Shown: positions 3,347-46,137, numbered from the stretch's first letter. The stretch is DNA of 64,000 nt from Thermodesulfobacteriota bacterium (GCA_965221875.1 OZ244920.1:1001845-1065844); one strand, 5' to 3'. Notes: generated from the letters alone by a model not told the origin. Numbers and translations: made by a program.

Positions 3347-4591
3347 ATGTGTGATATAGAACCGGACAAAAAACCGGCCATTAAAGTGGCCATGGAACTC
3401 GCTCCGGAGGATCGGGGCGAGACGGTCAGACTGATGGAGCCGCTTCTGATAGGCGAAACTTCAAGACACCGCGGCGAACTGACGGACCTGGCTGTTGATC
3501 TGGTGCAGCGCGCAGCGGGTCTTCGCCGTGGTTTGCCGGAGGGCATAACTGAGTCCCTTTCCAGTCTCGTAAGAGCGATAAACTGCTATTACAGCAATCT
3601 TATAGAGGGACATGACACCCACCTGACCGATATCGAGAGGGCGCTTAGAGGTGACTACAATGCTGATACAGAGAAGCGCAAACTGCAGCTTGAGGCCAAG
3701 GCCCATATCTCTGTACAGGAATGGATCGATAAAGGAGGCCTTAAGTTTGGCCCGACGGCTGTTGCCAGCCTGCGGGAAATCCACCGCCGGTTCGGCGAAC
3801 TGCTTCCCGAGGAACTGCTTCGTGTGGAAAATCCGGATACTGGGGAGATTGTCAGCGTTGTTCCCGGCGAACTGCGCGGTCGCGGCGTCCGGGTGGGACG
3901 GCATGTTCCCGTCAGCCCTGGAGCGGTGCCCCGTTTTGTGGAGCGGTTTGAAAGTGTCTACAGAGGTCTCGGCAAAACCGACACTATTCTGGCTTCCGCG
4001 GCGGCTCATCAAAGACTGCTCTGGATACATCCTTTTCTTGACGGAAATGGACGCGTTGCCCGTCTCATGTCCGACGCCATGTTATCGGAAGCTCTGGGAG
4101 CGGTCAGAATATGGTCGATCTCAAGAGGGTTGGCACGCAACGAAGAGTCGTATAAGAACCATCTGATGGCGTGCGACATGGGACGTCGCAATGATCTTGA
4201 CGGCCGGGGTCCTCTGAGCGAGGAGGCCTTGGCGAAATTTACGCGTTTTTTCTTGACCACCTGCATTGACCAAGTGGATTTCATGGAGAGGCTTATGATG
4301 CCGGATCGTCTACTGAACAGGATTCTGCTCTGGACGGAAGAGGAAATCCTTGCCGGTGAACTTCCTCCCCAATCAAGAATTATCATGAGGGAAGTTCTTT
4401 ACCGCGGCGAGATTCCAAGAGGAGAAGTCACTCGCCTTCTCGGCTCAAGCCCTCGCCACGCCCGTCGTATCACCTCTGTTCTGCTGAAACGTGGAATTCT
4501 GGTTTCACGGAGCACCCGCGCTCCATTGCGACTTGCCTTTCTGGCCGAATTCGCCTCCCGTTGGCTACCGGGAATGTTTCCAGAAAAATAA
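3347..4591 (+). CDS. Fic/DOC family protein with a C-terminal winged-helix region
   Basis: Canonical Fic motif HPFLDGNGRVARL. The start may be the later Met at 3392. Confidence 0.85.
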   Translation: MCDIEPDKKPAIKVAMELAPEDRGETVRLMEPLLIGETSRHRGELTDLAVDLVQRAAGLRRGLPEGITESLSSLVRAINCYYSNLIEGHDTHLTDIERALRGDYNADTEKRKLQLEAKAHISVQEWIDKGGLKFGPTAVASLREIHRRFGELLPEELLRVENPDTGEIVSVVPGELRGRGVRVGRHVPVSPGAVPRFVERFESVYRGLGKTDTILASAAAHQRLLWIHPFLDGNGRVARLMSDAMLSEALGAVRIWSISRGLARNEESYKNHLMACDMGRRNDLDGRGPLSEEALAKFTRFFLTTCIDQVDFMERLMMPDRLLNRILLWTEEEILAGELPPQSRIIMREVLYRGEIPRGEVTRLLGSSPRHARRITSVLLKRGILVSRSTRAPLRLAFLAEFASRWLPGMFPEK

Positions 4592-4641
4592 CGGGGAAAA
4601 ACTTTACAAATCCGGAATTATATTCCATAATTGCAAAGAAC

Positions 4642-5772
4642 ATGATAAGCCGTACAATAGAAAGCAAGCTTCTAAGTCTGGCCCGTCAGTATCCCGTTAT
4701 AACGATTACTGGACCTCGCCAGTCGGGAAAAACGACCGTGTCGGTCAAATGTTTTCCAGAGTACCTTTATCTCAGCCTGGAAGACCCGGATGTGCGTGAG
4801 CATGCCCGGAAAGACCCGAGAGGATTCCTCGCCCAATCGGAAAGAATGATTATAGACGAAATTCAGCATGTTCCCGATCTGGTCTCTTATATTCAGGGCA
4901 TCGTGGACCGCAGCGGTCAGGCTGGACAGTTCATCCTGACCGGAAGTCATCAGTTCAGTCTGACGGGCATGGTTTCCCAGTCGCTTGCCGGAAGGACTGC
5001 GCTTGTAAACCTGCTTCCCTTCTCGCTTGAGGAACTGGGGGAAAAGTCTTCGTATGAATATCTGATCTATCGGGGATTCTATCCTGCAATAGTTGACAGG
5101 AGCCTTAACCCTACCGAGGCGCTTTCCTTCTATACCAATACCTATATACAGAGAGACCTGAGAGATATAAGGGAGATCAGGAATTTAAGGCAGTTCGAGA
5201 ACTTTTTGAGATTGTGCGCCTCGAATGTCGGCCAGATGCTCAACAAGACCCGTATGGCCAGCGATATAGGGATTGACGGCAAAACTGTAGACGCATGGAT
5301 ATCGGTTCTTGAGGCAAGCTATGTTATTTACCTTCTTCCTCCGCACCACAGAAATTTCAGGAAGCGGATCGTGAAAACACCAAAGCTTTACTTCTGCGAT
5401 GTGGGACTTGCTTCCTATCTGCTTGGAATCAGGACAGTTGAGCACGTGAAATCACATCCGCTCAAGGGAATGCTTTTTGAAAATCTGGTCGTAATGGAAA
5501 AGGTCAAAGGGAAACTTAACAACGCTGAGCCCCAGTCTCTTTATTTCTTCAGAGACAACACGGGCAATGAAGTCGATCTCCTGGAGCAGGATGGCGCTGA
5601 TCTTCTTTCCTATGAAATAAAAACGACCCAGACCCTTAGCTCAGGGCTTTTCAAGGGGCTTAATTTCTACAAGAAGCTGAATCCCGACAACAAAAAGTCG
5701 GTTCTGATATATACGGGTCGTGAAAAAACAAACCGGTACGGACACGAATGCCTGCCTTTCTGGAGCGTCTGA
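4642..5772 (+). CDS. AAA ATPase of the DUF4143 / COG1373 family
   Basis: Walker A ITGPRQSGKTT and overall COG1373 architecture. The start was moved to an internal Met to avoid overlap with fic. Confidence 0.8.
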   Translation: MISRTIESKLLSLARQYPVITITGPRQSGKTTVSVKCFPEYLYLSLEDPDVREHARKDPRGFLAQSERMIIDEIQHVPDLVSYIQGIVDRSGQAGQFILTGSHQFSLTGMVSQSLAGRTALVNLLPFSLEELGEKSSYEYLIYRGFYPAIVDRSLNPTEALSFYTNTYIQRDLRDIREIRNLRQFENFLRLCASNVGQMLNKTRMASDIGIDGKTVDAWISVLEASYVIYLLPPHHRNFRKRIVKTPKLYFCDVGLASYLLGIRTVEHVKSHPLKGMLFENLVVMEKVKGKLNNAEPQSLYFFRDNTGNEVDLLEQDGADLLSYEIKTTQTLSSGLFKGLNFYKKLNPDNKKSVLIYTGREKTNRYGHECLPFWSV

Positions 5773-6529: not shown

Positions 6530-6636
6530 TAGACAGTTGTTTGAAGTGAACTTTCCCGGTTTTTTCATGTAGCATAACTGCAGGTAATGTTCCCTATTGT
6601 CTATAGCGAAATGCTTTGGTTCTTGAAGATAAGAAT

Positions 6637-6978
6637 ATGAAACAGGTTGAGGTTACAGAAGCGCTCCTCCAGCAGATGGTCAAGGTGATAGTGGATGAGG
6701 CGGATCCCGAACAGATAATACTTTTCGGTTCGTATGCCCGAGGCGATGCGTCGGCTGATTCTGATGTGGATCTTGTTATAGTGGAATCCGACCCGTTCGA
6801 TGAAAACAGGGACCGCCGCGCCGAAATTGTGCGCCTTTCTTGGGCACTAGCGGGTTTCCCGGTTCCCAAGGACATTTTGGTCTACAGCAGGGACGAAGTT
6901 GAATACTGGCGCAATTCCATCAACAATGTTCTTGCTCGTGCGCTTCGCGAAGGGAAGGTTCTCTATGACAGACCTTGA
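6637..6978 (+). CDS. Nucleotidyltransferase domain protein (MNT-type antitoxin-like)
   Basis: The GSYARGDASADSDVDLVIV motif (GS...D.D) typical of the minimal nucleotidyltransferase fold. Confidence 0.8.
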   Translation: MKQVEVTEALLQQMVKVIVDEADPEQIILFGSYARGDASADSDVDLVIVESDPFDENRDRRAEIVRLSWALAGFPVPKDILVYSRDEVEYWRNSINNVLARALREGKVLYDRP

Positions 6979-7372
6979 GCAGGCCGCGACGATGCTGGAT
7001 GCAGCCGGGAGGGATCTTTCAGCCTTGCGGGCAATGGGCGACAATCCTGATTTCGCGGATGAAATCTTCGGTTTTCACGCTCAGCAGGCAGCCGAGAAAA
7101 GTTTCAAGGCATGGCTGTCTCTTCTGGGAGAGGAATACCCTCTAACTCATGACCTAGTTCTGTTGCTGAAGATGCTTGTACGGCGCGATAAAGACGCAAT
7201 GCGTTTTAAGGCTTTGGCTGATTACGGTCCCTACGCTGTTCAGATTCGTTACATGGCTGACCCCGACACAAGACCGCTTGACCGCGGGGTAGCCTTGGAG
7301 CATCTGGAGGCGTTGATGGAACATGTGCAAAGCATGTTCTCGCGGTTGCGGGAAGCAAACGATGACGAGTAG
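6965..7372 (+). CDS. HEPN domain protein (HepT-like toxin partner of the upstream nucleotidyltransferase)
   Basis: Overlaps the NTase stop by 14 nt. An Rx4-6H-like region sits in a ~135-aa helical protein, the classic MNT-HEPN pairing. Confidence 0.7.
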   Translation: MTDLEQAATMLDAAGRDLSALRAMGDNPDFADEIFGFHAQQAAEKSFKAWLSLLGEEYPLTHDLVLLLKMLVRRDKDAMRFKALADYGPYAVQIRYMADPDTRPLDRGVALEHLEALMEHVQSMFSRLREANDDE

Positions 7373-8828: not shown

Positions 8829-9007
8829 TTTAAGGTTTCCTGAAACTGCGCGTACGAAGAATTATCACGCAACCCTACCCGAAAATCAAGTTTCCTAAAG
8901 ACTCCGGCGGCCCCTAGGCTTTCTTGAAAACCCGGTCCCGTGTATTTATACTTACCAAGATATTGCAGAAGGCCGCGAAGCTATGCGGTCAAACGGAGGT
9001 TTCAGAA

Positions 9008-9850
9008 ATGGCGGATTACGCGAACCCTGACGTTCTGGTGAGCACGGACTGGGTAGAGGAGCATATCGACGACCCCGATATCGTTATAGTGGAATCGGAT
9101 GAGGACATACTGCTTTATGAAATAGGACACATAAGAAATTCGGTGAAATTCGACTGGCAGACTGAGCTTCAGGATCAGCTTATAAGGGATTACGTGAGCA
9201 GGGAGGATTTCGAGGCACTGCTTTCGGAAAAAGGTATTTCAAACGACCATGCGGTGGTTTTCTACGGGGACAGGAGCAACTGGTGGGCCTGCTACGCGTT
9301 CTGGACCTTCAAGGTGCTCGGACATGAAAAATGCCTTATAATGGATGGCGGCAGGCAGAAATGGGTCGACGAGGGAAGAGAGCTTGTAAAAGAGGTCCCC
9401 GAAAGGCCAAAGACCGATTACAAGGTATCGGTGGTTGATGAGTCTATAAGGGCTTTTCGCGATGATGTTGTTGAACACACTAACTCGGGAAAGCCACTTG
9501 TCGATGTCCGTTCCCCGAAGGAATATTCCGGAGAGCTGCTTCACATGGAGGCTTACCCCCAGGAAGGCGCGCTTCGCGGAGGACATATTCCGGGTGCGGC
9601 AAACGTCCCTTGGGCTACAGCTGCGAACGAGGACGGAACTTTCCGCTCGGCCGATGAACTTGTAGAGATATACGAAAAGGGGCAGGGACTGAGCAAGGAT
9701 CAGGACGTGATTGCCTACTGCAGGATAGGGGAACGCTCTTCCCACACTTGGTTTGTCCTTACCTATCTTCTCGGGTTTGAGAACGTTAAAAATTACGACG
9801 GTTCGTGGACTGAGTGGGGGAACCTTGTAAGAGCTCCGATAGAGAAATAA
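9008..9850 (+). CDS. sseA: Rhodanese-domain sulfurtransferase (thiosulfate / 3-mercaptopyruvate sulfurtransferase, two rhodanese domains)
   Basis: Active-site loop CRIGERSS and tandem rhodanese architecture. RBS GGAGG upstream of the ATG at 9008. Confidence 0.85.
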
Positions 9851-9880
9851 TAGGGAGAAAGGTTTTTTGCGTGAATTAGA

Positions 9881-9917
9881 AAGGATGTGGTCTTAATAGT
9901 CTGCATCCTTTTTTTTT
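9881..9917 (+). terminator. Putative Rho-independent terminator downstream of the rhodanese gene
   Basis: Imperfect stem aggatgtgg...ctgcatcct followed by a T9 run. Confidence 0.4.
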
Positions 9918-9932
9918 TGAAATTGCGGGAAG

Positions 9933-10358
9933 ATGACCAGCGTAGAGGAAATAGTCAGAGAATTCCAGGAGGCGGACCGCCAGGGGATGATCGATCTGCT
10001 GAAGGACTACTCCGAGGACCTGCCGGAGGTTCCCGAGAGAGTTTTAAGCCTGATGGACAGGGACGTCAACAGGGTGCACGAGTGCGAAACCCCCGTTTTC
10101 ATCTGGATCGAGAGGGAAGATGGTGCCGTAACGATATTCGCCGACGTGCCGGGACCTTATCCGACCGTCAGGGGACTTGTTTCGATTCTCGTAAACGCGT
10201 TTTCCGGCCTGAGTCCCCAGGAGATAGAGTCAGCTCCCCCTGATTTCATTTCCCGCCTCGGACTTGCGCAGTTGCTTGGAACCAGGAGGATGTGGGGGAT
10301 TTCCGCCGTCTACTCAAGAATAAAGAGCGAGGTTGGGAAAACGGAGGAAGTGTCGTGA
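9933..10358 (+). CDS. sufE: SufE-family sulfur acceptor protein
   Basis: Aligns along its length to E. coli SufE (conserved Cys in VHECETPVFIW; C-terminal LGLAQLLGTRRMWGISAV matches HLTPSRSQGLEAM). Confidence 0.75.
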   Translation: MTSVEEIVREFQEADRQGMIDLLKDYSEDLPEVPERVLSLMDRDVNRVHECETPVFIWIEREDGAVTIFADVPGPYPTVRGLVSILVNAFSGLSPQEIESAPPDFISRLGLAQLLGTRRMWGISAVYSRIKSEVGKTEEVS

Positions 10359-10372
10359 TAGAAGAGCAGAGA

Positions 10373-10744
10373 ATGAAGATGATCATGGATCATTACGAGA
10401 ATCCGAGAAACTTCGGCCCGCTTGAGAGTCCCACGGTGACGCTTAGGGGCGGCAACCCGAATTGCGGAGACACGCTGAATATCTATATTCGTACAGCCGA
10501 GGGGGGCATCATAGAAGATATAAGTTTTGACGGAGAAGGTTGCACGATAAGTCAGGCCGCGGCTTCTCTTCTTACGGAATTTATAAAGGGAAAGACCGTG
10601 GAGCAGCTCAGAGAGCTCGACTCCGACTACCTCAGGGAACTTCTCGGCAAGGACATCATGGTAACCCGCCCGAAGTGCAGCCGCCTCGCCCTTGAAACCC
10701 TCAAATCATGGGCACGGAACTTCGAGAGGGGAAAAACCGCCTGA
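10373..10744 (+). CDS. sufU: SufU/IscU-type Fe-S cluster scaffold / sulfur transfer protein (NifU N-terminal domain)
   Basis: NPNCGDTLNIYI and GEGCTISQAAASLLTE motifs. The ISQA variant is typical of SufU. Confidence 0.8.
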   Translation: MKMIMDHYENPRNFGPLESPTVTLRGGNPNCGDTLNIYIRTAEGGIIEDISFDGEGCTISQAAASLLTEFIKGKTVEQLRELDSDYLRELLGKDIMVTRPKCSRLALETLKSWARNFERGKTA

Positions 10745-10796
10745 TTTTTGGTATACTTCTCTTTATTACTCAACCAGACTCAAGGAGATTCAAATA

Positions 10797-12131
10797 ATGA
10801 AAAACGGCAAACCCGACAAAACAGTTCTAAGCGAGAGGATTGAGGAAGCGCTTAAGTACCCTCTTTTCGATTCCATATTCAACAGGCGATCAAGGCGCTT
10901 CGGTCTTGGAATGGAGCTTAAGGACAGCACCCTTGAGTTCAAGTCGAAGTACGACCCCGTGCCTCTTACCGAGGAGGAGGAAGCGCTTCTGGTGTGGGCG
11001 GGAACAGGGCTTACGGGGCTCTGCCTTGCCGACCTGCCGCCCGAGAACGGGATAGATCTTCTTTGCCAGTGGACGGGGAGAACCTGGCCGTCTGCGTGCA
11101 ACAATCACGGGACGGAGCTTTTTTTCACAAACGATGAGGGTCTCTACCACGTGGACGTGAAGAACATGCTTCCAAAGGAGCACGAGATTGACATGTTTTT
11201 CCAGCTTTCAAGGGAGGAGAAAATCGCCAGGATTCTTGAACTCTACAGGGAGAGCCTTAACAAGCTTGAAGATGGAAGGGCTGACATGCCAGACAAGATG
11301 CCGGGACTCTTTGAGTTTAACCAGTGGAATACCAACAAGCCCGGCACCACGCTTTTTGTTCCGGTCACCGACGTTACCGAGGAGTACCTGAATCTTCTTA
11401 CCCTTTACTGCAGCCACAGTTACGGATTCACGATTATAGACGACCTTACGGGAAAGCCCGCGGGCGTTGAGAAATGGGTGGAGAAGGGCAGGCTCAAGGG
11501 TGAAGTCAAGCTTTCCCTGTTTGATCTTGAGGTAAGAATTCTTACCGGACTTAATGTTGAACAGGCGTTCGTTACGCAGAACATGGCGCTTGCTCTCCAG
11601 CCCCTTGGGCTTGCGGGATGGGCGTTTACGGGCTTCATACCGCGGTTCGCCATGGGAGCCGCTCCGAACCTGTTCAGGGGTCTCGGATTCCGGTTCATCC
11701 AGCCCAAAAAAGGTACGATTGATCCTCCCACCACCGTTCCCGTGGGAAAGGACGGGGTATTTGAAGCCTACTGCCCTCCCTACTATGAGAACATGGATGA
11801 CGCGATTGATCACTTCCTGGCCCACAAGTGGAAAGCTTGGGAATCCGACAAGCCTTTTCCTTACACAGAGCCTGACAAGCATCTCATGAAGGCCCCGAGG
11901 CCCACGGAGACCACAATACAGATTGTAAGGGACGTCGCTAACTACATTCATGATACTTACGGCAGATTCCCCGCGTTTGTGGATCCCATGTACATGAGGT
12001 TGGTCTTCCAGGCGATGCACATAGACCCGGATTTCTATGACCAGTACTATCCGAAAGGCTCTTACTCGGACAGGCATCTGGCGGCTTTTCTTGAGAACCA
12101 CCCGGATCAGAGAGAGCGGTTCGAGAAGTAA
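10797..12131 (+). CDS. Nitroreductase-superfamily protein (two-lobed, SagB-type dehydrogenase-like), function unknown
   Basis: N-terminal RRSRRFG motif and C-terminal ALALQPLGLAGWAFTGF (nitroreductase dimer-interface signature). A strong RBS AAGGAG lies 9 nt upstream. Confidence 0.5.
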   Translation: MKNGKPDKTVLSERIEEALKYPLFDSIFNRRSRRFGLGMELKDSTLEFKSKYDPVPLTEEEEALLVWAGTGLTGLCLADLPPENGIDLLCQWTGRTWPSACNNHGTELFFTNDEGLYHVDVKNMLPKEHEIDMFFQLSREEKIARILELYRESLNKLEDGRADMPDKMPGLFEFNQWNTNKPGTTLFVPVTDVTEEYLNLLTLYCSHSYGFTIIDDLTGKPAGVEKWVEKGRLKGEVKLSLFDLEVRILTGLNVEQAFVTQNMALALQPLGLAGWAFTGFIPRFAMGAAPNLFRGLGFRFIQPKKGTIDPPTTVPVGKDGVFEAYCPPYYENMDDAIDHFLAHKWKAWESDKPFPYTEPDKHLMKAPRPTETTIQIVRDVANYIHDTYGRFPAFVDPMYMRLVFQAMHIDPDFYDQYYPKGSYSDRHLAAFLENHPDQRERFEK

Positions 12132-12188
12132 TGTCTGCCGCGTACGGGAGATTTAAAACCCGGTTTGCGGCAAGGAAGGAGACCAGCC

Positions 12189-13463
12189 ATGCGCGTGGCT
12201 ATTATAGGAAATGGGGTAACCGGGGTCGCTGCCGCCCTTAGCGTGCGCAGGCTGCAGCCCGACTGGGAAATCGTCATGATTTCTGGGGAATCCTCCTTTC
12301 ACTACTCCCGTCCGGCGCTCATGTACATATTCATGGGCCACATGAGCTACAAGGACACCAAGCCCTACGAGGACAGTTTCTGGAGGAAAAACCGCATCGA
12401 TCTGGTACGTGGCTGGGTTAGCGGAATTGATGCCGCCGGAAAAAAACTCATCATGCACGAAAGGGATTCCATTTCTTTTGACAAGCTGCTTATCGCCACG
12501 GGATCAAAGTCAAACAGGTTCGGGTGGCCCGGCCAGGATCTCGGGGGAGTCCAGGGTCTCTACAGCCTTATGGACCTCAGGCTTCTTTACGAGAACGTAA
12601 AGGGAGCCCGAAGCGCCGTCATAGTCGGGGGAGGGCTGATCGGGATCGAACTTGCCGAGATGCTTCACTCACGCAATATCCACGTCACCTTTCTGGTGCG
12701 GGAGGAGTCCTACTGGACAAACGTTCTTCCTGCAGAGGAATCGCAGATGATAAACCGTGTCATCTTGGAGCAGGGAATTGATCTGAGGCTCACTACGGAG
12801 CTCAAGGAGATAGTCGGGAACGATTCGGGAAAAGTGCGGGGAGTTGTAACCAGCAAAGAGGAATTCATAGAATGCCAGATCGTCGGTCTCACCGCTGGGG
12901 TAAGTCCCAACATAGCCCTTGCCAAGGCAAGCGGGATAAAGACGGGGAGAGGGGTTCTGGTTGACTGGAGCTTCAGGACCGATACCCCGGATGTGTTCGC
13001 CGCCGGGGACTGCGCCGAGATAATCACCGAAGGGGAGGGAAGGAACCTTATTCAGCAGGTCTGGTACACGGGCAAGAACCAGGGAAAAGTGGCGGGAGAG
13101 GTGATAGCCGGCCGACAGAGCGTGTATGACCCTGGGATATGGTATAACTCGGCCAAGTTCTTTGATCTTGAGTACCAGACTTACGGTACCGTGAGTTCCG
13201 CTCCTGTTTCGGGAGAAAGCAGTTTTTACTGGGAGCACCCCGATCACAGCCGTTCGATAAGAATTGTTACGAAGGACGGAGCCGTCTGCGGCATAAACGT
13301 TATGGGCCTTCGCTACAGCCACAGGGTTTGCGAGAGCTGGGTGGCGGAGAAGAGATCTCTTGACTATGTGCTTGGTCATCTGGGGGATGCTAATTTCGAT
13401 CCTGAATTCTACGAAAAATGCGAAGCGGAAATAATAAAGGAGATAAGGAAACAGGCTGCCTGA
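12189..13463 (+). CDS. FAD/NAD(P)-dependent oxidoreductase (ferredoxin/rubredoxin reductase / NirB-like pyridine nucleotide-disulfide oxidoreductase family)
   Basis: MRVAIIGNGVTGVAAA and VIVGGGLIGIELAE dinucleotide-binding motifs, plus the YSRPAL motif. Confidence 0.8.
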   Translation: MRVAIIGNGVTGVAAALSVRRLQPDWEIVMISGESSFHYSRPALMYIFMGHMSYKDTKPYEDSFWRKNRIDLVRGWVSGIDAAGKKLIMHERDSISFDKLLIATGSKSNRFGWPGQDLGGVQGLYSLMDLRLLYENVKGARSAVIVGGGLIGIELAEMLHSRNIHVTFLVREESYWTNVLPAEESQMINRVILEQGIDLRLTTELKEIVGNDSGKVRGVVTSKEEFIECQIVGLTAGVSPNIALAKASGIKTGRGVLVDWSFRTDTPDVFAAGDCAEIITEGEGRNLIQQVWYTGKNQGKVAGEVIAGRQSVYDPGIWYNSAKFFDLEYQTYGTVSSAPVSGESSFYWEHPDHSRSIRIVTKDGAVCGINVMGLRYSHRVCESWVAEKRSLDYVLGHLGDANFDPEFYEKCEAEIIKEIRKQAA

Positions 13464-14857
13464 TGGAAGAGAACATTGTAGATTACGATTTTGACGAAGA
13501 AACCCTTGGTTTTGAGGAACCGGAGAAAGCTCCTGACAAGCCGCTTGGAACCGGAGAAAAGCTTTCTCTCGCCGTTCTGGGCTTCGGAATACTGATGTTT
13601 GCTCTTCAGTCCATGGGCATGCCTCCGGGCGGCACTTGGGCCGGGTTTCTCCTGGTATTCCTTCCCGTTTCGCTCGGCACGGCGCTCTACTTCTACCTTA
13701 ACTTCAAAGGCACCGTCCCGGGGATCAAGCATGACAACGTCTATTTCAGGGGAATCACCGCCAGGGGGTCTCTCGGCTGGCTTGTCGGCATTGTGTTTAC
13801 CGGTTTCTACATAGCTCTTTACTGGTTTCCCGAATACCTGGCAGGGGGAATAAGGATTGTAAACCCTCTTTCCTTGGCACTCTCAGGTTCTCCGGCCAAC
13901 AACTGGTTTTTCTACGGCTTTCTCTATACCGTGGCAGTTTTTGTCTTCGGCGTGAGAATGTTCATGAAATACAGGAATAACCGCTACCAGAAGATAAGAA
14001 CGGCTTCAGTGATGTTTTTCCAGCTCGGGTTCGCTTTTCTCATCCCCAACATACTTATGCTCTTTAACCAGCCCGAGTTCTACCTGAGCTACTTCTGGCC
14101 GCTTAAACCTGAATACCTGTTCCCGGGCACCCTGAGCTATTTTATGAATCATCCCGGCGGACTTGGAATGTTCCTTGTTTTCTGGGGGGCTGTGATGACC
14201 TTCATTGCCACCCCTGTTCTTACCTACTATTTTGGCAAGAGGTGGTACTGTTCCTGGGTGTGCGGCTGTGGAGGGCTCGCGGAAACCATGGGGGATCCGT
14301 GGAGGCAGCTCTCGGACAAGTCGAAAAAAGCGTGGCGCATAGAGCGATGGGTCGTGCATTCCGTATTGGTGTTTATCGTTGTTACTACGGTTCTTCTCTG
14401 GGTTAACTCCGCGAGTTCGGGAGCGGTGTTCGGAGATGCGTCAATGTCTCTTAAGAGATGGTATGGCTTCTACATAGGCGCCATCTTCTCGGGGGTTATA
14501 GGGGTGGGTTTTTACCCCATAATGGGAAGCAGGGTGTGGTGTCGGTTCGGTTGTCCCATGGCGGCTGTTCTCGGAATTTTCCAGAGGTATATTTCAAGAT
14601 TCAGGATCACCACAAACGGCGACCAGTGCATGTCGTGCGGGAACTGCTCCACCTACTGCGAGATGGGCATAGATGTCAGGGCTTACGCCCAGAAGGGCGA
14701 GAATATAGTGAGAGCGTCGTGCGTTGGATGCGGTGTGTGTTCGGCCGTGTGTCCCAGGGGAGTGCTTAAGCTTGAAAACGGGGGGACTTTCAAGGACAGG
14801 TTCTCGGGGTCCGACAAGCCGATCGGGGCGCTCATTGATTCGCTGAGACATGTTTAG
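13463..14857 (+). CDS. Integral membrane polyferredoxin of the NapH/MauN/CcoG-like family, with a C-terminal 2x[4Fe-4S] domain
   Basis: Multiple TM helices, CX3CP motif (CRFGCPMAA), and C-terminal CMSCGNCSTYC ... CVGCGVCSAVCP. The start overlaps the upstream stop (TGATG). Confidence 0.7.
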   Translation: MEENIVDYDFDEETLGFEEPEKAPDKPLGTGEKLSLAVLGFGILMFALQSMGMPPGGTWAGFLLVFLPVSLGTALYFYLNFKGTVPGIKHDNVYFRGITARGSLGWLVGIVFTGFYIALYWFPEYLAGGIRIVNPLSLALSGSPANNWFFYGFLYTVAVFVFGVRMFMKYRNNRYQKIRTASVMFFQLGFAFLIPNILMLFNQPEFYLSYFWPLKPEYLFPGTLSYFMNHPGGLGMFLVFWGAVMTFIATPVLTYYFGKRWYCSWVCGCGGLAETMGDPWRQLSDKSKKAWRIERWVVHSVLVFIVVTTVLLWVNSASSGAVFGDASMSLKRWYGFYIGAIFSGVIGVGFYPIMGSRVWCRFGCPMAAVLGIFQRYISRFRITTNGDQCMSCGNCSTYCEMGIDVRAYAQKGENIVRASCVGCGVCSAVCPRGVLKLENGGTFKDRFSGSDKPIGALIDSLRHV

Positions 14858-15087: not shown

Positions 15088-16470
15088 CTATGAGTTTCTT
15101 GTGCGAATCCACCGTCCCCAGCGACCTGGTTTTGTAGATGCTATTAGACCACGCTCTTTCAAGACGGTTAAGTCTCTTTTTACTTGACGTTTACTTACAT
15201 ATGGAGGCATCTGTGCGTGAATGTCGCTTAGGGTAAGTCCATCGGCTTGGCGGTCGATCAAAAAGATAATTACTTCCTGCCGTTCAATCGAATCAATTAA
15301 GTTGCGTCGGAAACATACTGTTACATCTCTTCCATTATCCTCAATCTCGGGGCGCGGAAGACGCGCGGACTCCATTGTCTTCGCCATCTTGATAGTTCCT
15401 GTTCCCCACTTCTCGATAATTCCTCGACGGTAGAATGTACTGGCGATCAGAGGATTCCACGGCTTAGATTTGTGTGATGTGAACAGTTTCTCAGCAGTCA
15501 GTCCGAAATGTAGCGGACCTGGAGAGACCACCTCCATACGGTCATCATAGACTGCCAAATCCACGGAACTGCCGGCAATGATGTAGTCACGATGACATAA
15601 CGCGTTTATAATCGCTTCCCGTGTTGCTTCGTGTGGGTAGAGCGGTTCGTCAATCCGCGCGAAGCGGCCCGGTTCAAACCGTCCGGCGATGGGCAGAGTC
15701 TCGCGCAGGAATCGTTCCGCATCCTCGAGAAGCTTGAAAGCGTTGCCCTTGAACTGCCGATTGTCCAGAAACTCCATTTTATCAAAACCCCGAAAACGAG
15801 CAACGCACAGCAGGCACTGCGGCATTCTGCGGGCAATGAGTTCTTCCTTGCCGAACAGCACGACCGCCGCCTGAAGCAGTTCGTCGTTTTGTCCAAGAAG
15901 TTCCAGACCGCGCAGCAAATCAGTCAATTCCATGCTTACAGGGGCTTTCAGGCGTTTTTGCCTGAATGCCTCCTGCACCGTGATCCGAATCTCGTCCGCG
16001 TCAAGATCTTCAATCGACCACTCCTCTGCGGGCAGCTTTTCCCATCGATATTTTTCGTGCACTTCCTCGATAAGCATCTGCGTGACATCCCAGCGCGACA
16101 TCTCTACAGTGGTGTTTCCGACCCTGCGATACTCTTTGCGTTTGTAAGCATACGGCTTGGAATTGCCGGGTTTCACGCTTATTACCACCACTTCGCGGTC
16201 TCCTTTTACGCGTACCCGCTCAATTGAGGGAAAAACCTGAGATTCAATGTTTCGGATCTCGGAGCTTAATTGCTCAATAGTCCGGTCAGACACCTGCTGG
16301 CCTTCTATTCTTCCTTCTGGAGATACGCCGAACAGCACGTGCCCGCCGCGTTGATTGAGCATGGCGCACACGGTTTTCATCGCATCACTGCGCCTTCCTG
16401 TAGAGAGCTTGAACTCAAGCGTTTCGGATTCGCCTTTTGCTACCAGAGCTTTTATTTGTTCAGGAGTCAT
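15088..16470 (-). CDS. AlbA_2 / Schlafen-like DNA-binding domain plus HATPase_c_4-type ATP-binding domain plus C-terminal wHTH (putative regulator; often mis-annotated as RecG-like)
   Basis: N-terminal ESETLEFKLSTGRRSDAMKTVCAMLNQRGGHVLFGV (AlbA_2 signature). Domain order is typical of this family. Confidence 0.6.
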   Translation of the reverse strand: MTPEQIKALVAKGESETLEFKLSTGRRSDAMKTVCAMLNQRGGHVLFGVSPEGRIEGQQVSDRTIEQLSSEIRNIESQVFPSIERVRVKGDREVVVISVKPGNSKPYAYKRKEYRRVGNTTVEMSRWDVTQMLIEEVHEKYRWEKLPAEEWSIEDLDADEIRITVQEAFRQKRLKAPVSMELTDLLRGLELLGQNDELLQAAVVLFGKEELIARRMPQCLLCVARFRGFDKMEFLDNRQFKGNAFKLLEDAERFLRETLPIAGRFEPGRFARIDEPLYPHEATREAIINALCHRDYIIAGSSVDLAVYDDRMEVVSPGPLHFGLTAEKLFTSHKSKPWNPLIASTFYRRGIIEKWGTGTIKMAKTMESARLPRPEIEDNGRDVTVCFRRNLIDSIERQEVIIFLIDRQADGLTLSDIHAQMPPYVSKRQVKRDLTVLKERGLIASTKPGRWGRWIRTRNS

Positions 16471-16508
16471 GAAATTATCTCTATTGCGTGCATTCTCGGG
16501 TTCAGTAT

Positions 16509-16539
16509 GTTTGCAATCCTTCGTGGTTTTATTGCAAAC
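16509..16539. promoter_or_regulatory. Perfect 9-bp inverted repeat GTTTGCAAT-N13-ATTGCAAAC upstream of the 15088..16470 gene (candidate operator)
   Basis: Seen directly in the sequence. It lies 38-68 nt upstream of the start codon of a wHTH-containing protein. Confidence 0.3.
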
Positions 16540-16610
16540 ATAAAGGGAAAGACGATTTGTTCAGATGAAATATCGTTTTTATAGAGGTTGTTCGGTCTTT
16601 CTTGACGTTT

Positions 16611-17066
16611 TCAGATATTGAGAAACTCGACGGATTCCATGCTTTCCTTTTTCCCTCGGTCGAATCTTTCGATTATCTCGCCGTTTTCTATGTCAAAGAT
16701 GAAGCAGGATATACCAGAGAGTATTTCCATGTTGAACTCCAGGAAATTGTTGACGTATATCTTGGAATCTTCAATGATTTCCTTTTTGTCGGCCTTGTCC
16801 GGTTTTCTCACCAAAATGAAATACGCGCACAGAAAATCCGGGAGGTCAGAGTTATGGGCGAATACGGCTTTTGAATCGTATTTCAGTATTACGTTATTGT
16901 TAAAATAGCGCTGATATCCGGCGATTAGCGGCTGGTTCAGATGAGACAGGGCGTAAACGATCGCGCAGGCGATTCTGCTCTGGTTCTCAATCATGAAATC
17001 AAGCGCTTCCTTGTTGAAGCGTTCAAGTGTTTTTTCCGGTTTTTCCTTGTCTCGTGGTTCTCGCAT
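16611..17066 (-). CDS. Hypothetical protein
   Basis: 151-aa ORF with a strong RBS AGGAGG 6 nt upstream. Local GC is lower than the surroundings. Confidence 0.45.
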   Translation of the reverse strand: MREPRDKEKPEKTLERFNKEALDFMIENQSRIACAIVYALSHLNQPLIAGYQRYFNNNVILKYDSKAVFAHNSDLPDFLCAYFILVRKPDKADKKEIIEDSKIYVNNFLEFNMEILSGISCFIFDIENGEIIERFDRGKKESMESVEFLNI

Positions 17067-19966: not shown

Positions 19967-22074
19967 CCCAAGTGGCCAAGGCTCTCTCACGCTAAGGAGA
20001 GGGGTTGGCATTATTGAAGGATGGCGGGGGTTTAAAGATATTGCTGGCTTTTTTCCATAAATGCTGTTATAAACAGTGTTTATGAGCAAGGGGTCATCAT
20101 CGGTTCCAACTCCGAAGTTCGTTCTCAAGGACGTTGCCGTGAGAGTTGCGCGTTGTGACGAAGTTCCCAGATGGAACGAACTTATGAACGAGAATCACTA
20201 TCTTGGGTTCAAGCAGTTTGCGGGTCGGGGTCTTCGGTACGTGGCGGAGTACGAGGGGCGATGGATAGCGATCGCCGGATGGCAGGCGGGAGCTTTCAAG
20301 TGCGCTCCGCGGGACCGCTGGGTGGGGTGGAAGCCGGAGTGTCAGTTCCGCAATCTTCATCTCATAGGTAACAACACCCGGTTTCTGGTTCTGGGCGAGG
20401 CGGGAGAGTTTCCCAATCTGGCCTCGTACTTCATGGGGTCCATGACGAAGCGGCTGAGCGGGGACTGGGAGGAGCGTTACGGGCACGGTCTGCTTCTGGC
20501 GGAGAGTTTCGTGGACCCCAGGCATTTTTCGGGAGCTATGTACAAGGCGTCTAACTGGAAGTACGTGGGTTTAAGCAGGGGATATCCCCGGTCAAACGGA
20601 GCTTACAGGAAACCCCACGGCAACAGGAAGGAGCTGTACGTATATCCTCTGAGGCGAGGGGCCCGCGGGATGCTTCGCCGCGGCAACGCTTTGGGAGAGC
20701 GGTGGAGAGCGAAGAGGGCGGGCACCCGCAGGTCGGACGAGGCGCTGCGTTCGCTTTACGATGAATTGCGGGAGGTGGAGGATTTCCGCAGGGCCCAGGG
20801 CAGAAAGCACAGCGTGGCGTGCGTTGTGGCTATATACATTCTCTCGTTTCTCTCGGGGATGAGGGGTGGTGACGCGGCGGCGCAGTACGCAAAGAGTCTC
20901 TCCCAGAATGAGCTTAAGGCTCTTGGGGGATGGTACAACAGGAAGACGGGCCGCTACGACGCAGTTTCAAGGGCCACTATGCACAGGGTAATAAGCCGCC
21001 TGGACCCCAGGGAGCTTGAGGAAACGCTCGCGCGTTATTCCTCCGCGCGGGTACGTTTCGGGGAGGCTGTGGCAGCAGACGGCAAACGGATACGGGGGGC
21101 CAACAGAAACGGGGATGAGCATTATGAGGTTGTAACTCTGGTGGAACATGGGAGCGGGGCGCCTCTGGGGAGTCTTAACTTCAGGGAAGAAGGCGGGGAG
21201 AGAGCAGCGGTCGCAGCTTTGCTCGAAGAAGTCTCCATAGAGGGGAGGATCATAACGCTTGACGCCCTGCATACCACGAGAAACACCGCCCGCTCCATCG
21301 TGGAGACCCATGGCGCGGACTACCTGTTCACGGTTAAGGGCAACAGTCCGCGCACTTACGAGGTGCTGAGTTCGGTGAACTGGGAGCGGGACGCCGAGAG
21401 ACGTTTCGCCGAGGCGCTGAACAAGGAGCATGGGCGTATGGAGCGGCGTTCCATAGAGGTTATGGACGCCTACAGGAGAATGATCAATTACCCTTGCGTG
21501 AAACAGGTGTTTCGGGTGAGGCGATGGCGCAAGGATATGAAGACACGGAAACAGACTGTTGAATACGCTTTCGGGATTACGTCGGTTGACAAGCGCAGGG
21601 GCACTCCCGAACAACTGCTTGCCTGGAACAGGGGACACTGGTCAGTGGAGACCAGAAATCACCTCATACGCGACACAACCTTCGGAGAAGACAGATGTCT
21701 CTCTCGCGTGGGCGGCGCTCCCGCCAACAACGCCGCGTGCGCCAACATAGCGCTCGCGGTTATTTTCCACAACAAGTTCAAAAGCGCGGCCGAGGCCACC
21801 AGACACTTCGCGCTGAACAGGGAAGCGGCTTTTGAAGCCCTGTTCTCACCGGGTTAGCCTGGCAGAATATTCCCCGCCATCTTTATTTCCATAAAAATCC
21901 GGAATCTCAAGGCGACACTTCGCCGGCAAACGTCAAAAAGTACCGGTACGCGTGCCGGCAATGTCCGGGAGGGCGGCTTTCCGGCACAAACCCCTGTTCT
22001 GCGCCGACAAATTGTTTGCTCCCCGGTATCAGCTCCGCAATTCGCTTCAAGAATAAGAGAGCCTTGCCCAAGTG
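19967..22074 (+). mobile_element. ISAs1-family insertion sequence (about 2.1 kb) with imperfect terminal inverted repeats (core GGCCAAGGCTCTCT / AGAGAGCCTTGCCC)
   Basis: IRs found at 19967-19990 and 22050-22074 flank the transposase ORF. Confidence 0.55.
20076..21857 (+). CDS. ISAs1-family transposase (H-repeat-associated, DDE) with an N-terminal DUF4338-like domain
   Basis: C-terminal NRGHWSVETRNHLIRDTTFGED matches the ISAs1 RGHWxIEN..HW.lDv.F.ED signature. DALHTTRNTARSIVETHGADYLFTVKGN is DDE-core-like. Confidence 0.8.
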   Translation: MFMSKGSSSVPTPKFVLKDVAVRVARCDEVPRWNELMNENHYLGFKQFAGRGLRYVAEYEGRWIAIAGWQAGAFKCAPRDRWVGWKPECQFRNLHLIGNNTRFLVLGEAGEFPNLASYFMGSMTKRLSGDWEERYGHGLLLAESFVDPRHFSGAMYKASNWKYVGLSRGYPRSNGAYRKPHGNRKELYVYPLRRGARGMLRRGNALGERWRAKRAGTRRSDEALRSLYDELREVEDFRRAQGRKHSVACVVAIYILSFLSGMRGGDAAAQYAKSLSQNELKALGGWYNRKTGRYDAVSRATMHRVISRLDPRELEETLARYSSARVRFGEAVAADGKRIRGANRNGDEHYEVVTLVEHGSGAPLGSLNFREEGGERAAVAALLEEVSIEGRIITLDALHTTRNTARSIVETHGADYLFTVKGNSPRTYEVLSSVNWERDAERRFAEALNKEHGRMERRSIEVMDAYRRMINYPCVKQVFRVRRWRKDMKTRKQTVEYAFGITSVDKRRGTPEQLLAWNRGHWSVETRNHLIRDTTFGEDRCLSRVGGAPANNAACANIALAVIFHNKFKSAAEATRHFALNREAAFEALFSPG

Positions 22075-22283
22075 GCATTTGCGCTGTAACGATTTTCAGG
22101 GTTCAGGTTTCTGGAACGAGAGCGGCGGCGAGACGTATTCCGGCACTCAGATGGCCATACTGCCCGATTCAGACGTAATCCGCCTCCGATTCACCTCTCC
22201 CGATCAGCCGCGGACGCAGCTTTCCCTTCTGGGTTAACTACTGTTTAAATTGTTTTACTGAATCACCGGGATGTTATCCAGCC

Positions 22284-24254
22284 CTAGCGGTAGTTTACTG
22301 TGAGGGGTTTGGGCAATCAGCAGCAGTGTTGTAACTATTTGAATTGATTGAACTACAAGAAGAAGAGGCGTATTACCTACCAGAAGTCAGAATTTCATCC
22401 AACCGCAGCTTCTCAGCCAGAACTTCCTGTGTTCTGGTTCTCTTCGGAGTCACAACAGCTGTCCTCTGAGGGCCCCTTACTCCCTGGGATGGATAGAGTA
22501 TCTCAAACTGCATTATTCCACTTAACTCCTCAAGCAGCTTCTCCATAGAAAGATCCTTCCAGAACTTTGCCGACTCTGTGTACAGATGCTGCAATATCGA
22601 AACCCCCAGCATACAGTAAAAAGCATGAACCCTTATCTTGCTGTCAGTCCAGTGGTACATGGGATTCCAGCTGACCCACTGCCCACTCTTAAGACCTCGA
22701 AACACCCTCTCTATTTTCTGCTGACCGTCATAAGCCTCTATCACCTGCTCCCCACTCCACCCAACACGATTGCTCATAAGCACAGTGCGACCGAAACGCT
22801 TGTCCATAAGCCCCGAGAGTTGTTCACAGTCCATAGAGAAGTTAAGCCTCCAAACACCGTTGCTACGCTCAAGCTCCCAGTTCACAATATCCGATACAAA
22901 CTGTGCCTGAAGATAACGAGATACACGATTACGTATCCCTTCCTCCGTATATCTTGCCCCCGGCCTGCCCAACTCCCTGTTAAGCCTTCTCATGGATTCC
23001 ATGGCCTTTGTAGCGGAATTAACAACACTCTGCATCTGCTCCGCCGCAAAACAAGACGAATACTTCAAAACCAGCAGATACTCCCTGCCATGACATAACT
23101 CCATGCAAGACCCCACACTCACCCCCGGATGAGCAAACCCCAAGGGCTTAAGTTCCTCTATGGACATCTCCCGCAATTCCTTCGGAGCCTGTTTCCACGG
23201 CAAAGCGCTTATCCACCCCAACCCCCTCTCCTCGAGCATTGAAGTATTCACTGTGGAAGCCGACCCCTTGTCCATTACCAGAGTTACGCTGTCGCGCTCA
23301 ATACTATGGCTGTCCAGCATCCCCACAAGCCTGTCTACAAGCCCCGGCAGCACACTGCTGTCGTTCAGGTTGCCAGGATACACCTTATGACACAGACTCA
23401 ACCCCGCCTCCCCGTCCATCACGTAACTTAATCCCACCTGGCGAAGATCATGACGCTTCTGCTTGTTACGCCCCCGCTTTGCAAGCTCACTGCGCTCATT
23501 GAATGTTGATATCCACGTGTGGAAGTTAGAAGTGTCATAGGCAAGCACGTAACGGCTTAGCAGATTCCTCTCCCTCCACGCCCCGAGCAAAGCAGCTTGA
23601 GCATGCTCAAGCTCATCGTTTCCCTCTTGTTGTTCAATACGGTCAAAAGCGTCCCAGAATGCCTGGGAAGTGAAGCGCTTGGAATCAAACCCCAGGTGTC
23701 TGCTGAGGATGCTGCCTGTGTACCATTGCTCAACCTGGGTTTTAGGCCCCGGATCACAGATTCTGTGTATTGCGGCAAGCAGCAGATAATGGGCTATGGA
23801 GGGACCTGATCTGGGTTGTGGCCAGATGGATTGCAGAGCTTCTACGACACCGCAGCGTTGCGCGCAGAGCCATAGTGCGGCTGGAAGACCGAATTCAACG
23901 GTTCTTGCTTGTTGTGGAAGGGGTGCGCCTTTTTCAAGGATCATGGATTCAACAGCTTCTGCAGTGCCGAGGTAGGTTTGTTTGGTAATGCGGGGTTTTC
24001 CGTTTACGCGAGAGGAGTGTACGACGTAGTAGTATCGTCTATTTCCTTTCTTTTTGTGGATGATGGATGCCATAGTAGGTAATACCATAATAACCAGTAT
24101 TCTATGCAAGTCAATAGTAGAAGATAAATAAAATATAGAAGAACAATACCCAACAGGGTAATACGCAATAAGAACGCAAAAAACCATTACATATCAAGGG
24201 GTTGTATCACTCTCTAAGTGGGATTAATTCGCTTCACAGTAAACTACCGCTAGC
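22284..24254 (-). mobile_element. IS1634-family insertion sequence (about 1.97 kb) with 20-bp perfect terminal inverted repeats CTAGCGGTAGTTTACTGTGA
   Basis: IR at 22285-22304 and its reverse complement at 24235-24254. It is inserted into the 3' end of the neighbouring IS1182-like transposase gene. Confidence 0.7.
22373..24073 (-). CDS. IS1634-family (IS4 superfamily) transposase
   Basis: N-terminal MASIIHKKKGNRRYYYVVHSSRVNGKPRITKQTYLG is the hallmark IS1634 transposase N-terminus. Confidence 0.85.
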   Translation of the reverse strand: MASIIHKKKGNRRYYYVVHSSRVNGKPRITKQTYLGTAEAVESMILEKGAPLPQQARTVEFGLPAALWLCAQRCGVVEALQSIWPQPRSGPSIAHYLLLAAIHRICDPGPKTQVEQWYTGSILSRHLGFDSKRFTSQAFWDAFDRIEQQEGNDELEHAQAALLGAWRERNLLSRYVLAYDTSNFHTWISTFNERSELAKRGRNKQKRHDLRQVGLSYVMDGEAGLSLCHKVYPGNLNDSSVLPGLVDRLVGMLDSHSIERDSVTLVMDKGSASTVNTSMLEERGLGWISALPWKQAPKELREMSIEELKPLGFAHPGVSVGSCMELCHGREYLLVLKYSSCFAAEQMQSVVNSATKAMESMRRLNRELGRPGARYTEEGIRNRVSRYLQAQFVSDIVNWELERSNGVWRLNFSMDCEQLSGLMDKRFGRTVLMSNRVGWSGEQVIEAYDGQQKIERVFRGLKSGQWVSWNPMYHWTDSKIRVHAFYCMLGVSILQHLYTESAKFWKDLSMEKLLEELSGIMQFEILYPSQGVRGPQRTAVVTPKRTRTQEVLAEKLRLDEILTSGR

Positions 24255-25706: not shown

Positions 25707-25933
25707 GGGTTTTTTCCTCCGGGAAAGTGAATTTGGCTGTCACCATTAATTCTAACCCATGGCGACATTAAATCAAGTAATATCAGTAAGTTACTTGCCC
25801 CCGCATTAGTTTCAATCTGTTTGGTCTTGGGGTGAAATTTGTGGTTTCTGGAGAGAATCAGGCGGTTTTCGAGGGTTTTGGTAGAAATTCTGGGGTAAGA
25901 AATATTTTTGCCCATCCCAAACCCCTTGCCCTG
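24234..25933 (-). mobile_element. IS1182/IS5-like element, copy A, 3' end disrupted by the IS1634 insertion. Its 5' end was defined by comparison with copy B at 62988.
   Basis: About 230 bp upstream of the transposase start is conserved (roughly 85-90% identical) with the region upstream of the second transposase copy at 62988-63227. Confidence 0.5.
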
Positions 25934-26035
25934 CAGGCATATCCTTTACTACGCAAATGCCTCCCCAAGCGTGTTTATCAGGCCCGCAGAGAGAATTTTT
26001 TACGTTTTTGGGACTTTTTGTCTATAATTTCTGCC

Positions 26036-41846: not shown

Positions 41847-41872
41847 CTTTCTGCTTAGGAGGTAGGAACCGC

Positions 41873-46136: not shown

Positions 46137-46137
46137 G

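Follow-up and report, generated by a model that had tools for sequence, protein, structure and literature searches.

Why should a two-domain rhodanese, a SufE and a SufU-type protein be encoded in one run of genes with a nitroreductase-like protein, a flavoprotein and a membrane polyferredoxin, with no cysteine desulfurase beside them? This question is raised by a stretch of DNA of 64,000 nucleotides (nt) from a Thermodesulfobacteriota bacterium (GCA_965221875.1, OZ244920.1:1001845-1065844; this whole stretch is hereafter called the window), in which six co-directional open reading frames (ORFs) lie on the + strand at positions 9008-14857. A sequence-only reading of the window had reported these six genes, all of which we found as described, and had taken them as one dedicated module for sulfur relay and electron transfer. 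We are inclined, with some reserve, to a different answer, namely that three units, each inherited independently, have been packed together at this locus in a single lineage, and that they are not one six-protein machine. A relay that works without SufS is a credible part of the earlier proposal, but the single dedicated machine is unproven, in that the full array is found in one clade only and its units are separable elsewhere.

The features of the locus are as follows, with positions counted from the first letter of the window and protein lengths given in amino acids (aa).

8924..8952, + strand: sigma-70-like promoter match, TTGAAA-17-TATACT, upstream of the rhodanese gene (consensus scan, 10/12 matches)
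9008..9850, + strand: two-domain rhodanese, a thiosulfate sulfurtransferase of the CysA/SseA type (PF00581 twice, E 9.7e-34)
9880..9918, + strand: terminator-like hairpin and T10 in the rhodanese-SufE spacer (folding of the 82-nt spacer)
9933..10358, + strand: SufE-type sulfur acceptor, 141 aa (PF02657, 75.6 bits against a cutoff of 27)
10355..10744 (GTG start) or 10373-10744 (ATG start), + strand: compact SufU-type NifU_N protein (PF01592, 95 bits)
10797..12131, + strand: protein X, 444 aa, nitroreductase fold (predicted fold and motifs)
12136..12172, + strand: hairpin without a U-tract in the spacer between X and the reductase gene (folding, conservation in relatives)
12189..13463, + strand: FAD/NAD(P)H flavoprotein of the ferredoxin/rubredoxin-reductase type, 424 aa (PF07992, 166 bits, and PF00070)
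13463..14857, + strand: membrane polyferredoxin, 464 aa, with about 8 predicted transmembrane helices (Fer4_5 and Fer4 dicluster Pfam hits)

Five of the six genes are confirmed by Pfam and NCBIfam, X being the exception. The number of promoter-type sites around the locus is not above shuffle expectation, and the match at 8924..8952 is weak evidence for a promoter. The junctions read from the sequence agree with the 14-nt and 52-nt gaps and the TGATG overlap reported earlier: SufE and SufU are separated by 14 nt if the ATG start is taken, or overlap by 4 nt (GTGA) with the GTG start annotated by gene callers, SufU and X are 52 nt apart, X and the reductase gene 57 nt apart, and the reductase and polyferredoxin genes overlap by 1 nt. 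This picture of short junctions had, however, omitted the 82-nt spacer between the rhodanese and SufE genes, with its strong hairpin and T10.

The array among its relatives

We compared the locus by tblastn searches of the six proteins on 87 loci and by a tree of X, and clades are given here by the identity of their X to that of the window (loci bear our own numbers, such as L008). One near-identical relative, L008, is contig JAJDTG010000010.1 from a metagenome-assembled genome (MAG) of Candidatus Dadabacteria, with 95-99% nucleotide identity to the window; NCBI places the Candidatus Dadabacteria lineage of the window within the Thermodesulfobacteriota. Where X is at least 89% identical, the six genes form a contiguous array in 24 of 26 loci, all from a single Dadabacteria clade. 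In one of the two exceptions a 1.6-kb insertion separates SufU from X, and in the other (L010/L177) 12.7 kb of insertion sequence (IS) elements lie at this position, with all genes intact. The order noticed in the window thus recurs, in these 24 loci, but it is restricted to this clade.

In the sister clade (X 82-86% identical), two reverse-strand genes lie between rhodanese-SufE-SufU and X, and the reductase pair is missing in some loci. The order in L004 and L036 is rhodanese, terminator, SufE-SufU, two reverse genes (a ComEA-like HHH_3 gene and an SSF transporter gene), X, terminator and reductase-polyferredoxin, so that reverse genes and terminators split the array of the sister clade into about four transcription units. 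L005 retains SufU, one reverse gene, X and PriA, and nothing else of the array. In two large clades (X 76-82%), X stands alone beside housekeeping genes, and in many lineages the solitary X adjoins HU/def or rnpA-yidC; about 35 related loci have a solitary X. In the deepest clade, which is marine and TMED58-type (X about 70%), rhodanese, SufU and X form a compact arrangement whose gaps measure 32-41 nt and about 60-170 nt; SufE is missing, there is no reductase pair within 10 kb, and the flanks are wholly different (UvrA upstream and a reverse AMP-ligase gene downstream).

Through these changes SufU is the most persistent neighbour of X. The two are co-directional in both the window clade and the marine one, and in L005 and L039 a single reverse gene lies between them, with SufU about 600 nt upstream of X. 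Because X is divergently adjacent to a sufU-sufS pair in L078, the link between SufU and X persists through rearrangement. Its recurrence across several Dadabacteria lineages with different flanks, all within one phylum-level lineage, is suggestive of coupling.

The spacers divide the array further. The rhodanese-SufE spacer folds at -23.4 kcal/mol (z -3.3) into a hairpin followed by T10, and this hairpin with a run of T7-13 is kept, with compensatory changes in the stem, in the window clade and in the clade of L004/L036/L039; the marine clade, which lacks SufE, does not have it. Because of this conserved hairpin and T-run, we consider that the rhodanese gene has a terminator-like element of its own, either a terminator or an attenuator. 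The spacer between X and the reductase gene folds at -20.6 kcal/mol in the near-identical L008, and its hairpin is likewise kept with compensatory changes in the window clade; at the same position the sister clade (L004, L036) has a full terminator and a gap of 300-356 nt. The hairpin in the window clade may serve translational control or be a degenerate terminator. In several relatives (spacers in L009-L032), the 3′ arm of the hairpin at 12136-12172 pairs with the Shine-Dalgarno sequence of the reductase gene.

The sulfur carriers and cysteine desulfurases

The rhodanese is in itself an ordinary protein. It matches the Thermus rhodanese (PDB 1UAR, E 2e-119) and the mycobacterial thiosulfate sulfurtransferases CysA2 and SseA (3p3a/3hzu/3aax), shares their two-domain build, and carries its catalytic cysteine in the CRxGxR loop of the C-terminal domain, here C238-RIGERS, in which Cys238 and the whole CRIGERS loop are invariant in 39 relatives; only its conserved place upstream of SufE/SufU is distinctive. 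The SufE, well above its Pfam threshold, has its persulfide cysteine, Cys51, in an ECETPV motif and an equivalent of the arginine at position 119, and C51, R118 and R119 are invariant in 31 relatives. The SufU-type protein scores 90.8 bits against the SufU model TIGR01994, slightly under the cutoff of 92.5 and in a match limited to its first 86 residues, and stands well above the IscU/NifU models. Its zinc and persulfide ligands, C31, D33, C57, R99 and C102 (ATG numbering), which include the R99-x-x-C102 arrangement, are invariant in 42 relatives. It is without the Firmicutes-type insertion, as are the SufS-linked SufU proteins of related genomes, and its nearest relatives outside the Dadabacteria are SufU proteins of Chloroflexota (about 50% identity). 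The identities first proposed for the rhodanese and SufE are borne out by Pfam and the catalytic residues, and the SufU-type protein is a probable SufU by its ligands and its near-cutoff score.

The locus shares with the known SUF mobilisation systems (SufS-SufE in E. coli; SufS-SufU in Bacillus, Mycobacterium and Chloroflexota) a bona fide SufE, with Cys51 and Arg119, and a SufU-type protein with the Cys/Asp/Cys/Cys zinc site and an arginine three residues before the last cysteine. Unlike them, it has neither SufS nor SufBCD in the 64 kb, and a rhodanese stands as the upstream partner instead. No SufS, SufB/C/D or IscS, and no Aminotran_5 protein, was found among the ORFs of at least 180 aa across the window; a tblastn search with the SufS of the Dadabacteria locus L078 likewise gave no match in the window, and matched only in L078, L050, L105 and L176. 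The absence of SufS and SufBCD noted from the sequence extends, among these ORFs, to all 64 kb, including the position just upstream in the same operon, where they would have made this an ordinary suf locus.

When all SufU-type proteins from the fetched loci are placed in a tree, they fall into two clades. One is linked to SufS (L078, L050, L105 and L176) and the adjoining SufS has an RSGHHC active site. The other, to which the SufU of the window belongs, is linked to rhodanese, in that a rhodanese precedes every member but one and SufS is never found within 1.5 kb. Because SufE and SufU have been reported to exclude one another almost completely across species (PMC13066941), the pairing of sufE and sufU in the window, where the two genes are adjacent and probably translationally coupled, is an unusual and distinct arrangement. 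Given that no cysteine desulfurase is adjacent and that this SufU clade is linked to rhodanese and not to SufS, a persulfide relay fed by rhodanese is a reasonable reading, for which the best evidence offered by sequence comparison is the separate SufU clade together with the retention of rhodanese-SufU amid unrelated flanks. In-vitro reconstitution work led long ago to the proposal that rhodanese donates sulfur to Fe-S clusters. To our knowledge, no dedicated genetic system for such a supply has been demonstrated.

Protein X and the reductase-polyferredoxin pair

Searches with X against Pfam, NCBIfam and PDB, by single sequence and by profile, gave nothing usable, and no Pfam or NCBIfam match was obtained. 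Its predicted fold is the alpha+beta fold of nitroreductases, with one core that bears insertions and is extended at the C-terminus by about 110 residues. The original description of a 445-aa, two-lobed protein of the nitroreductase superfamily is upheld as to the fold, but the length is 444 aa, and two lobes are indicated neither by the predicted fold nor by an internal-repeat test, which detected no duplication. Motifs include RRSRRF at residues 30-35, QN..LA..LGLxGW at residues 261-275, which is a helix-strand motif typical of the superfamily, and Cys101; in the alignment of the family, RRSRRF and the single Cys101 are invariant. PF00881 was found weakly in 5 of 33 members of the X family (best E 0.0073) and not in X itself, and the SagB-type domain TIGR03605 gave no NCBIfam match in any of the 33 at E up to 10. 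Profile classification thus placed X with neither classical nitroreductases nor SagB, and it is the predicted fold that supports the superfamily. Because PF00881 is seen only weakly in a few members and the SagB-type model never, we regard X, on its predicted fold and motifs, as a remote, enlarged member of the nitroreductase superfamily that is not of the SagB type. It is most likely an FMN-dependent oxidoreductase, and the conserved RRSRRF motif is a hint that FMN may be held at a homodimer interface.

Compared with characterised members of the superfamily (NfsA/NfsB, Frp, BluB, IYD, SagB/McbC; structures 3hj9, 8cqs), X is about twice the size, with large insertions besides its C-terminal extension, falls below every Pfam and NCBIfam threshold, and has CNxH, with the invariant Cys101, in place of the usual S-x-N-x-QPW segment. 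The family is large: a search of 90% clusters gave 2037 hits, 482 species genomes contain relatives, and at 50% identity there are 1710 clusters. It is annotated as 'hypothetical' only, and conserves a length of about 440 aa throughout.

A paralogue, X2, is about 54% identical to X, and X1 and a perR-X2 pair occur together in one genome of 2.67 Mb. In 13 metagenomic loci from other Thermodesulfobacteriota, a Fur-family gene lies 46-203 nt upstream of X2, and its product is PerR-like (NF052545, 150.7 bits, below the NCBIfam cutoff of 180, against 87 for Fur). Given the PerR-like gene ahead of X2 and the X-like proteins that adjoin oxygenases or form fusions with them, the best reading of X is a flavoenzyme with a redox or oxygen/peroxide-stress role, possibly a reductase partner.

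Further observations concern the relatives of X. The perR-X2 pair was found in loci L096-L127 and L176 (e.g., L120 2283-4080; L176 6401-8305) and looks conserved in Thermodesulfobacteriota, and SufU-SufS pairs lie 5.5-6.8 kb from X2 in L105 and L176. In one X2 lineage the cluster also contains rubrerythrin, cytochrome c peroxidase, OsmC and a luciferase-like (LLM) monooxygenase. Other X-like genes lie upstream of a gene for an HpaB-like protein, and in protein P0425 (863 aa) the catalytic domain of an MpaB/Lcp-type oxygenase (101-315) is naturally fused to an X-like domain (430-858). A Thermoanaerobacter MAG (L002, 4837-16174) has three X-like paralogues together with two DUF2148 proteins, a TRAP DctM transporter, thiolase/DUF35-type proteins, a MaoC dehydratase and a CoA ligase, and this resembles a catabolic cluster that employs X-like enzymes.

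For the flavoprotein, the first assignment as ferredoxin-reductase-like agrees with PF07992/PF00070 and with the best PDB matches (1xhc, 8c0z_E, rubredoxin/ferredoxin reductases) and NCBIfam matches (HcaD, AndAa and NorW, all below cutoff, with no equivalog cutoff reached). It has the FAD and NAD(P)H Rossmann domains of ferredoxin/rubredoxin-NAD(P)+ reductases, an Fe-S protein as partner and no redox-active cysteine, since SFHYSRPALMY (HYSRPALMY) stands where CoA-disulfide reductases have this cysteine (near residue 43). A CoA-disulfide or persulfide reductase (CoADR, Npsr) was considered and rejected because the protein has no active-site cysteine; it also lies far below the cutoffs of the CoADR hidden Markov models (HMMs). 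With NADH:rubredoxin/ferredoxin oxidoreductases (NROR, NorW, rubredoxin reductase, BphA4) it shares the FAD/NAD(P)H architecture of two dinucleotide folds without a redox cysteine. Their partner, however, is a soluble rubredoxin, ferredoxin or oxygenase, whereas that of the window protein is a polytopic membrane polyferredoxin.

The closest characterised relatives of this polyferredoxin are NapH and the CcoG/YccM class. It shares with NapH/MauN/YccM/CcoG the Fer4_5 membrane-proximal cysteine motif and a C-terminal ferredoxin domain with two [4Fe-4S] clusters, its best HMM is NapH/MauN (TIGR02163, 56.6 bits against a cutoff of 213), and its cysteine motifs are C263x3C267GC269 and C360x3C364P, followed by the ferredoxin domain. 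All 13 cysteines are invariant in 30 homologues from several phyla, across which identity is about 60%. The likeness to NapH noted at the outset therefore holds, but the CX3CP motif is present in just one of the two membrane-proximal positions, where NapH is defined by two and the window protein has one plus CX3CGC. NapH also has 4 transmembrane helices, against about 8 predicted here from an AlphaFold2 model of low confidence (pLDDT 61), of which the helix count alone was used. It is accompanied by no NapG/NapAB or other nap genes in the window and by no cbb3 genes, and it has no FixG Ig-like domain. CcoG reduces Cu(II) by means of two Fe-S clusters, and its physiological electron donor is unknown (PMC7558416). 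The window polyferredoxin, in contrast to NapH/YccM/CcoG, is always paired by gene overlap, kept in all relatives, with an NAD(P)H flavoprotein, which is a candidate for a built-in electron donor.

The pair stands with no X or Suf gene beside it in Engelhardtia (Planctomycetota), an Acidobacteriota MAG and one Dadabacteria genome, whose X is about 100 kb away. It is an autonomous, widespread two-gene module that shows no sign of a need for X or the Suf proteins. Examples of the pair are L094 6661-9422, L095 3445-6155 and L093 6718-9398, and we also observed it in Zixibacteria, Krumholzibacteriia and Myxococcota, at about 60% identity.

Three inherited units or one machine

How might these proteins then work? 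The first of the three units would be a persulfide relay without SufS, in which the coupled SufE-SufU is preceded by a thiosulfate sulfurtransferase that has a terminator-like hairpin to itself. Sulfane sulfur from thiosulfate or another persulfide source would pass to Cys238 of the rhodanese, then to Cys51 of SufE and/or Cys31 of SufU, and from SufE/SufU to an Fe-S or thio-cofactor acceptor. The second unit would be X, an undescribed family of the nitroreductase fold and a putative redox or oxidative-stress flavoenzyme; because X persistently adjoins SufU, it might serve the relay, for example in the reductive handling of carrier persulfide. In the third, NAD(P)H would reduce the FAD of the ferredoxin-reductase-like protein, and electrons may then pass to the two cytoplasmic [4Fe-4S] clusters, to the membrane-proximal cysteine motifs of the NapH/YccM-like polyferredoxin, and on to quinone or another acceptor. 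That this third unit adjoins X in the window clade is probably a matter of position and not of mechanism.

Several points speak against such a division. First, there is no terminator U-tract from SufE through the polyferredoxin, and because the spacing of the six genes is also identical in 24 genomes, the five genes from SufE onward are probably co-transcribed in the window clade, which is compatible with a shared function there. Second, X directly precedes the reductase pair in a second subtree as well (gaps of 62 nt in L060 and 24 nt in L076), and because it recurs this adjacency may carry meaning. Third, the linkage of SufU and X is seen within one phylum-level lineage only, so that inherited synteny is possible. 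Finally, the binding of FMN by X is a prediction, as is the PerR assignment, given its score below cutoff.

Inherited synteny is also the alternative that survives best, although we consider it unlikely. It would hold that nothing beyond SufE-SufU is coupled, that the rhodanese is a housekeeping enzyme, that SufE and SufU serve a SufS encoded elsewhere, and that X and the redox pair are unrelated to them. The flanking housekeeping genes (pseudouridine synthase, Tmk, PriA, GlnE) are indeed also syntenic across these genomes, the solitary X beside HU/def or rnpA-yidC and the conserved terminator after the rhodanese gene are in keeping with this view, the pile-up of IS elements between SufU and X is tolerated, and related genomes have SufS-SufU pairs. 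However, this explanation fits poorly with a rhodanese-linked SufU clade that stands apart from the SufS-linked one and keeps its rhodanese adjacency in all members but one, with a deepest clade that retains rhodanese-SufU-X although its flanks have turned over completely, and with the X of L078, which lies divergently adjacent to sufU-sufS.

That the six proteins form one machine seems to us quite improbable. In such a machine, electrons from NAD(P)H would travel through the flavoprotein and the polyferredoxin to X, which would reduce or insert the persulfide sulfur bound to the carriers rhodanese, SufE and SufU. The identical order and spacing in 24 genomes, the lack of a U-tract terminator from sufE to the last gene, and the position of X, which is next to SufU in several clades and next to the reductase pair in two subtrees, are all in its favor; moreover, Fe-S assembly requires an input of electrons to convert S0 to S2-, and several systems are without a known donor (PMC13066941). 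Against this, the reductase pair is autonomous in other phyla, as it is in Dadabacteria genomes with X elsewhere, the marine clade keeps rhodanese-SufU-X with no reductase pair within 10 kb, and the sister clade parts the units by reverse genes and terminators. Enzymes of the nitroreductase fold normally draw electrons straight from NAD(P)H, and X would therefore need no separate reductase.

Finally, it is hardly credible that X is an azoline dehydrogenase of the SagB/McbC type, or a relative of it in thio/azoline chemistry, as in ribosomally synthesized and post-translationally modified peptides (RiPP-like), fed by the sulfur carriers, and this role, suggested by the sequence-only reading, was rejected because none of the 33 X-family members matches TIGR03605, no YcaO/cyclodehydratase (McbB,D) or precursor-like partner is found among the recurrent neighbours in about 170 loci, nor a YcaO/cyclodehydratase partner in the window, no internal duplication is detected, and X is 70-96% conserved across whole lineages and often lies beside housekeeping genes, unlike natural-product genes.

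The surroundings of the locus show a number of insertions and variable genes. RNase Y is parted from the polyferredoxin gene by an insert of about 2.2 kb, common to the window and L008, that consists of a Schlafen AlbA_2/HATPase_c_4 gene together with an ORF of 151 aa on the - strand at 15088-17066; most relatives are without it, and their RNase Y gene follows about 600 nt after the polyferredoxin gene. Three DDE transposase genes lie at 19972-25963, in a block missing from L008, which is otherwise 99% identical, and one of them (20076-21857) has a fused N-terminal DruA (Druantia)-like domain. Upstream of the locus are a nucleotidyltransferase/HEPN pair (6616-7372) and two Fic-domain proteins (3347-4591 and 4561-5772); because L008 has no counterpart at that position, the stretch of 2.4-7.4 kb is a variable region. 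Further away are an AAA_14/DUF4143 ATPase gene (50599-51738), a gene pair for a 3beta-HSD-like epimerase and a steroid 5-alpha-reductase (45141-46899), and, near this pair, a large S8 subtilase with Calx-beta and P-domains (41837-44458) in a stretch of 61% GC.

Searches of the literature on Dadabacteria and rhodanese, on PerR and nitroreductase, on subgroups of the nitroreductase superfamily, and on polyferredoxin with pyridine-nucleotide oxidoreductase found nothing on the system of this locus. What is new here is a rhodanese-linked SufU clade with a coupled SufE, the unannotated X family, and an unassigned flavoprotein-polyferredoxin module. The tight packing of the genes in one clade, with several IS elements in and around the locus, is no evidence for a single machine. 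The X family is now defined by a length of about 440 aa, a predicted nitroreductase fold, roughly 1700 clusters at 50% identity and a reproducible linkage to PerR, and the locus is a concrete, testable candidate for a sulfur system fed by rhodanese. A bolder proposal, which we regard as a long shot, is that in Dadabacteria the thiosulfate sulfurtransferase replaces SufS as persulfide donor to a dedicated clade of SufU, which SufE has joined in one branch, and that X is a stress-regulated flavin reductase that converts the carrier persulfide from S0 to S2-, with PerR controlling its paralogue. If this were true, these organisms would mobilise sulfur for Fe-S clusters or thio-cofactors independently of cysteine desulfurase, and X would supply the missing electron-donor step.

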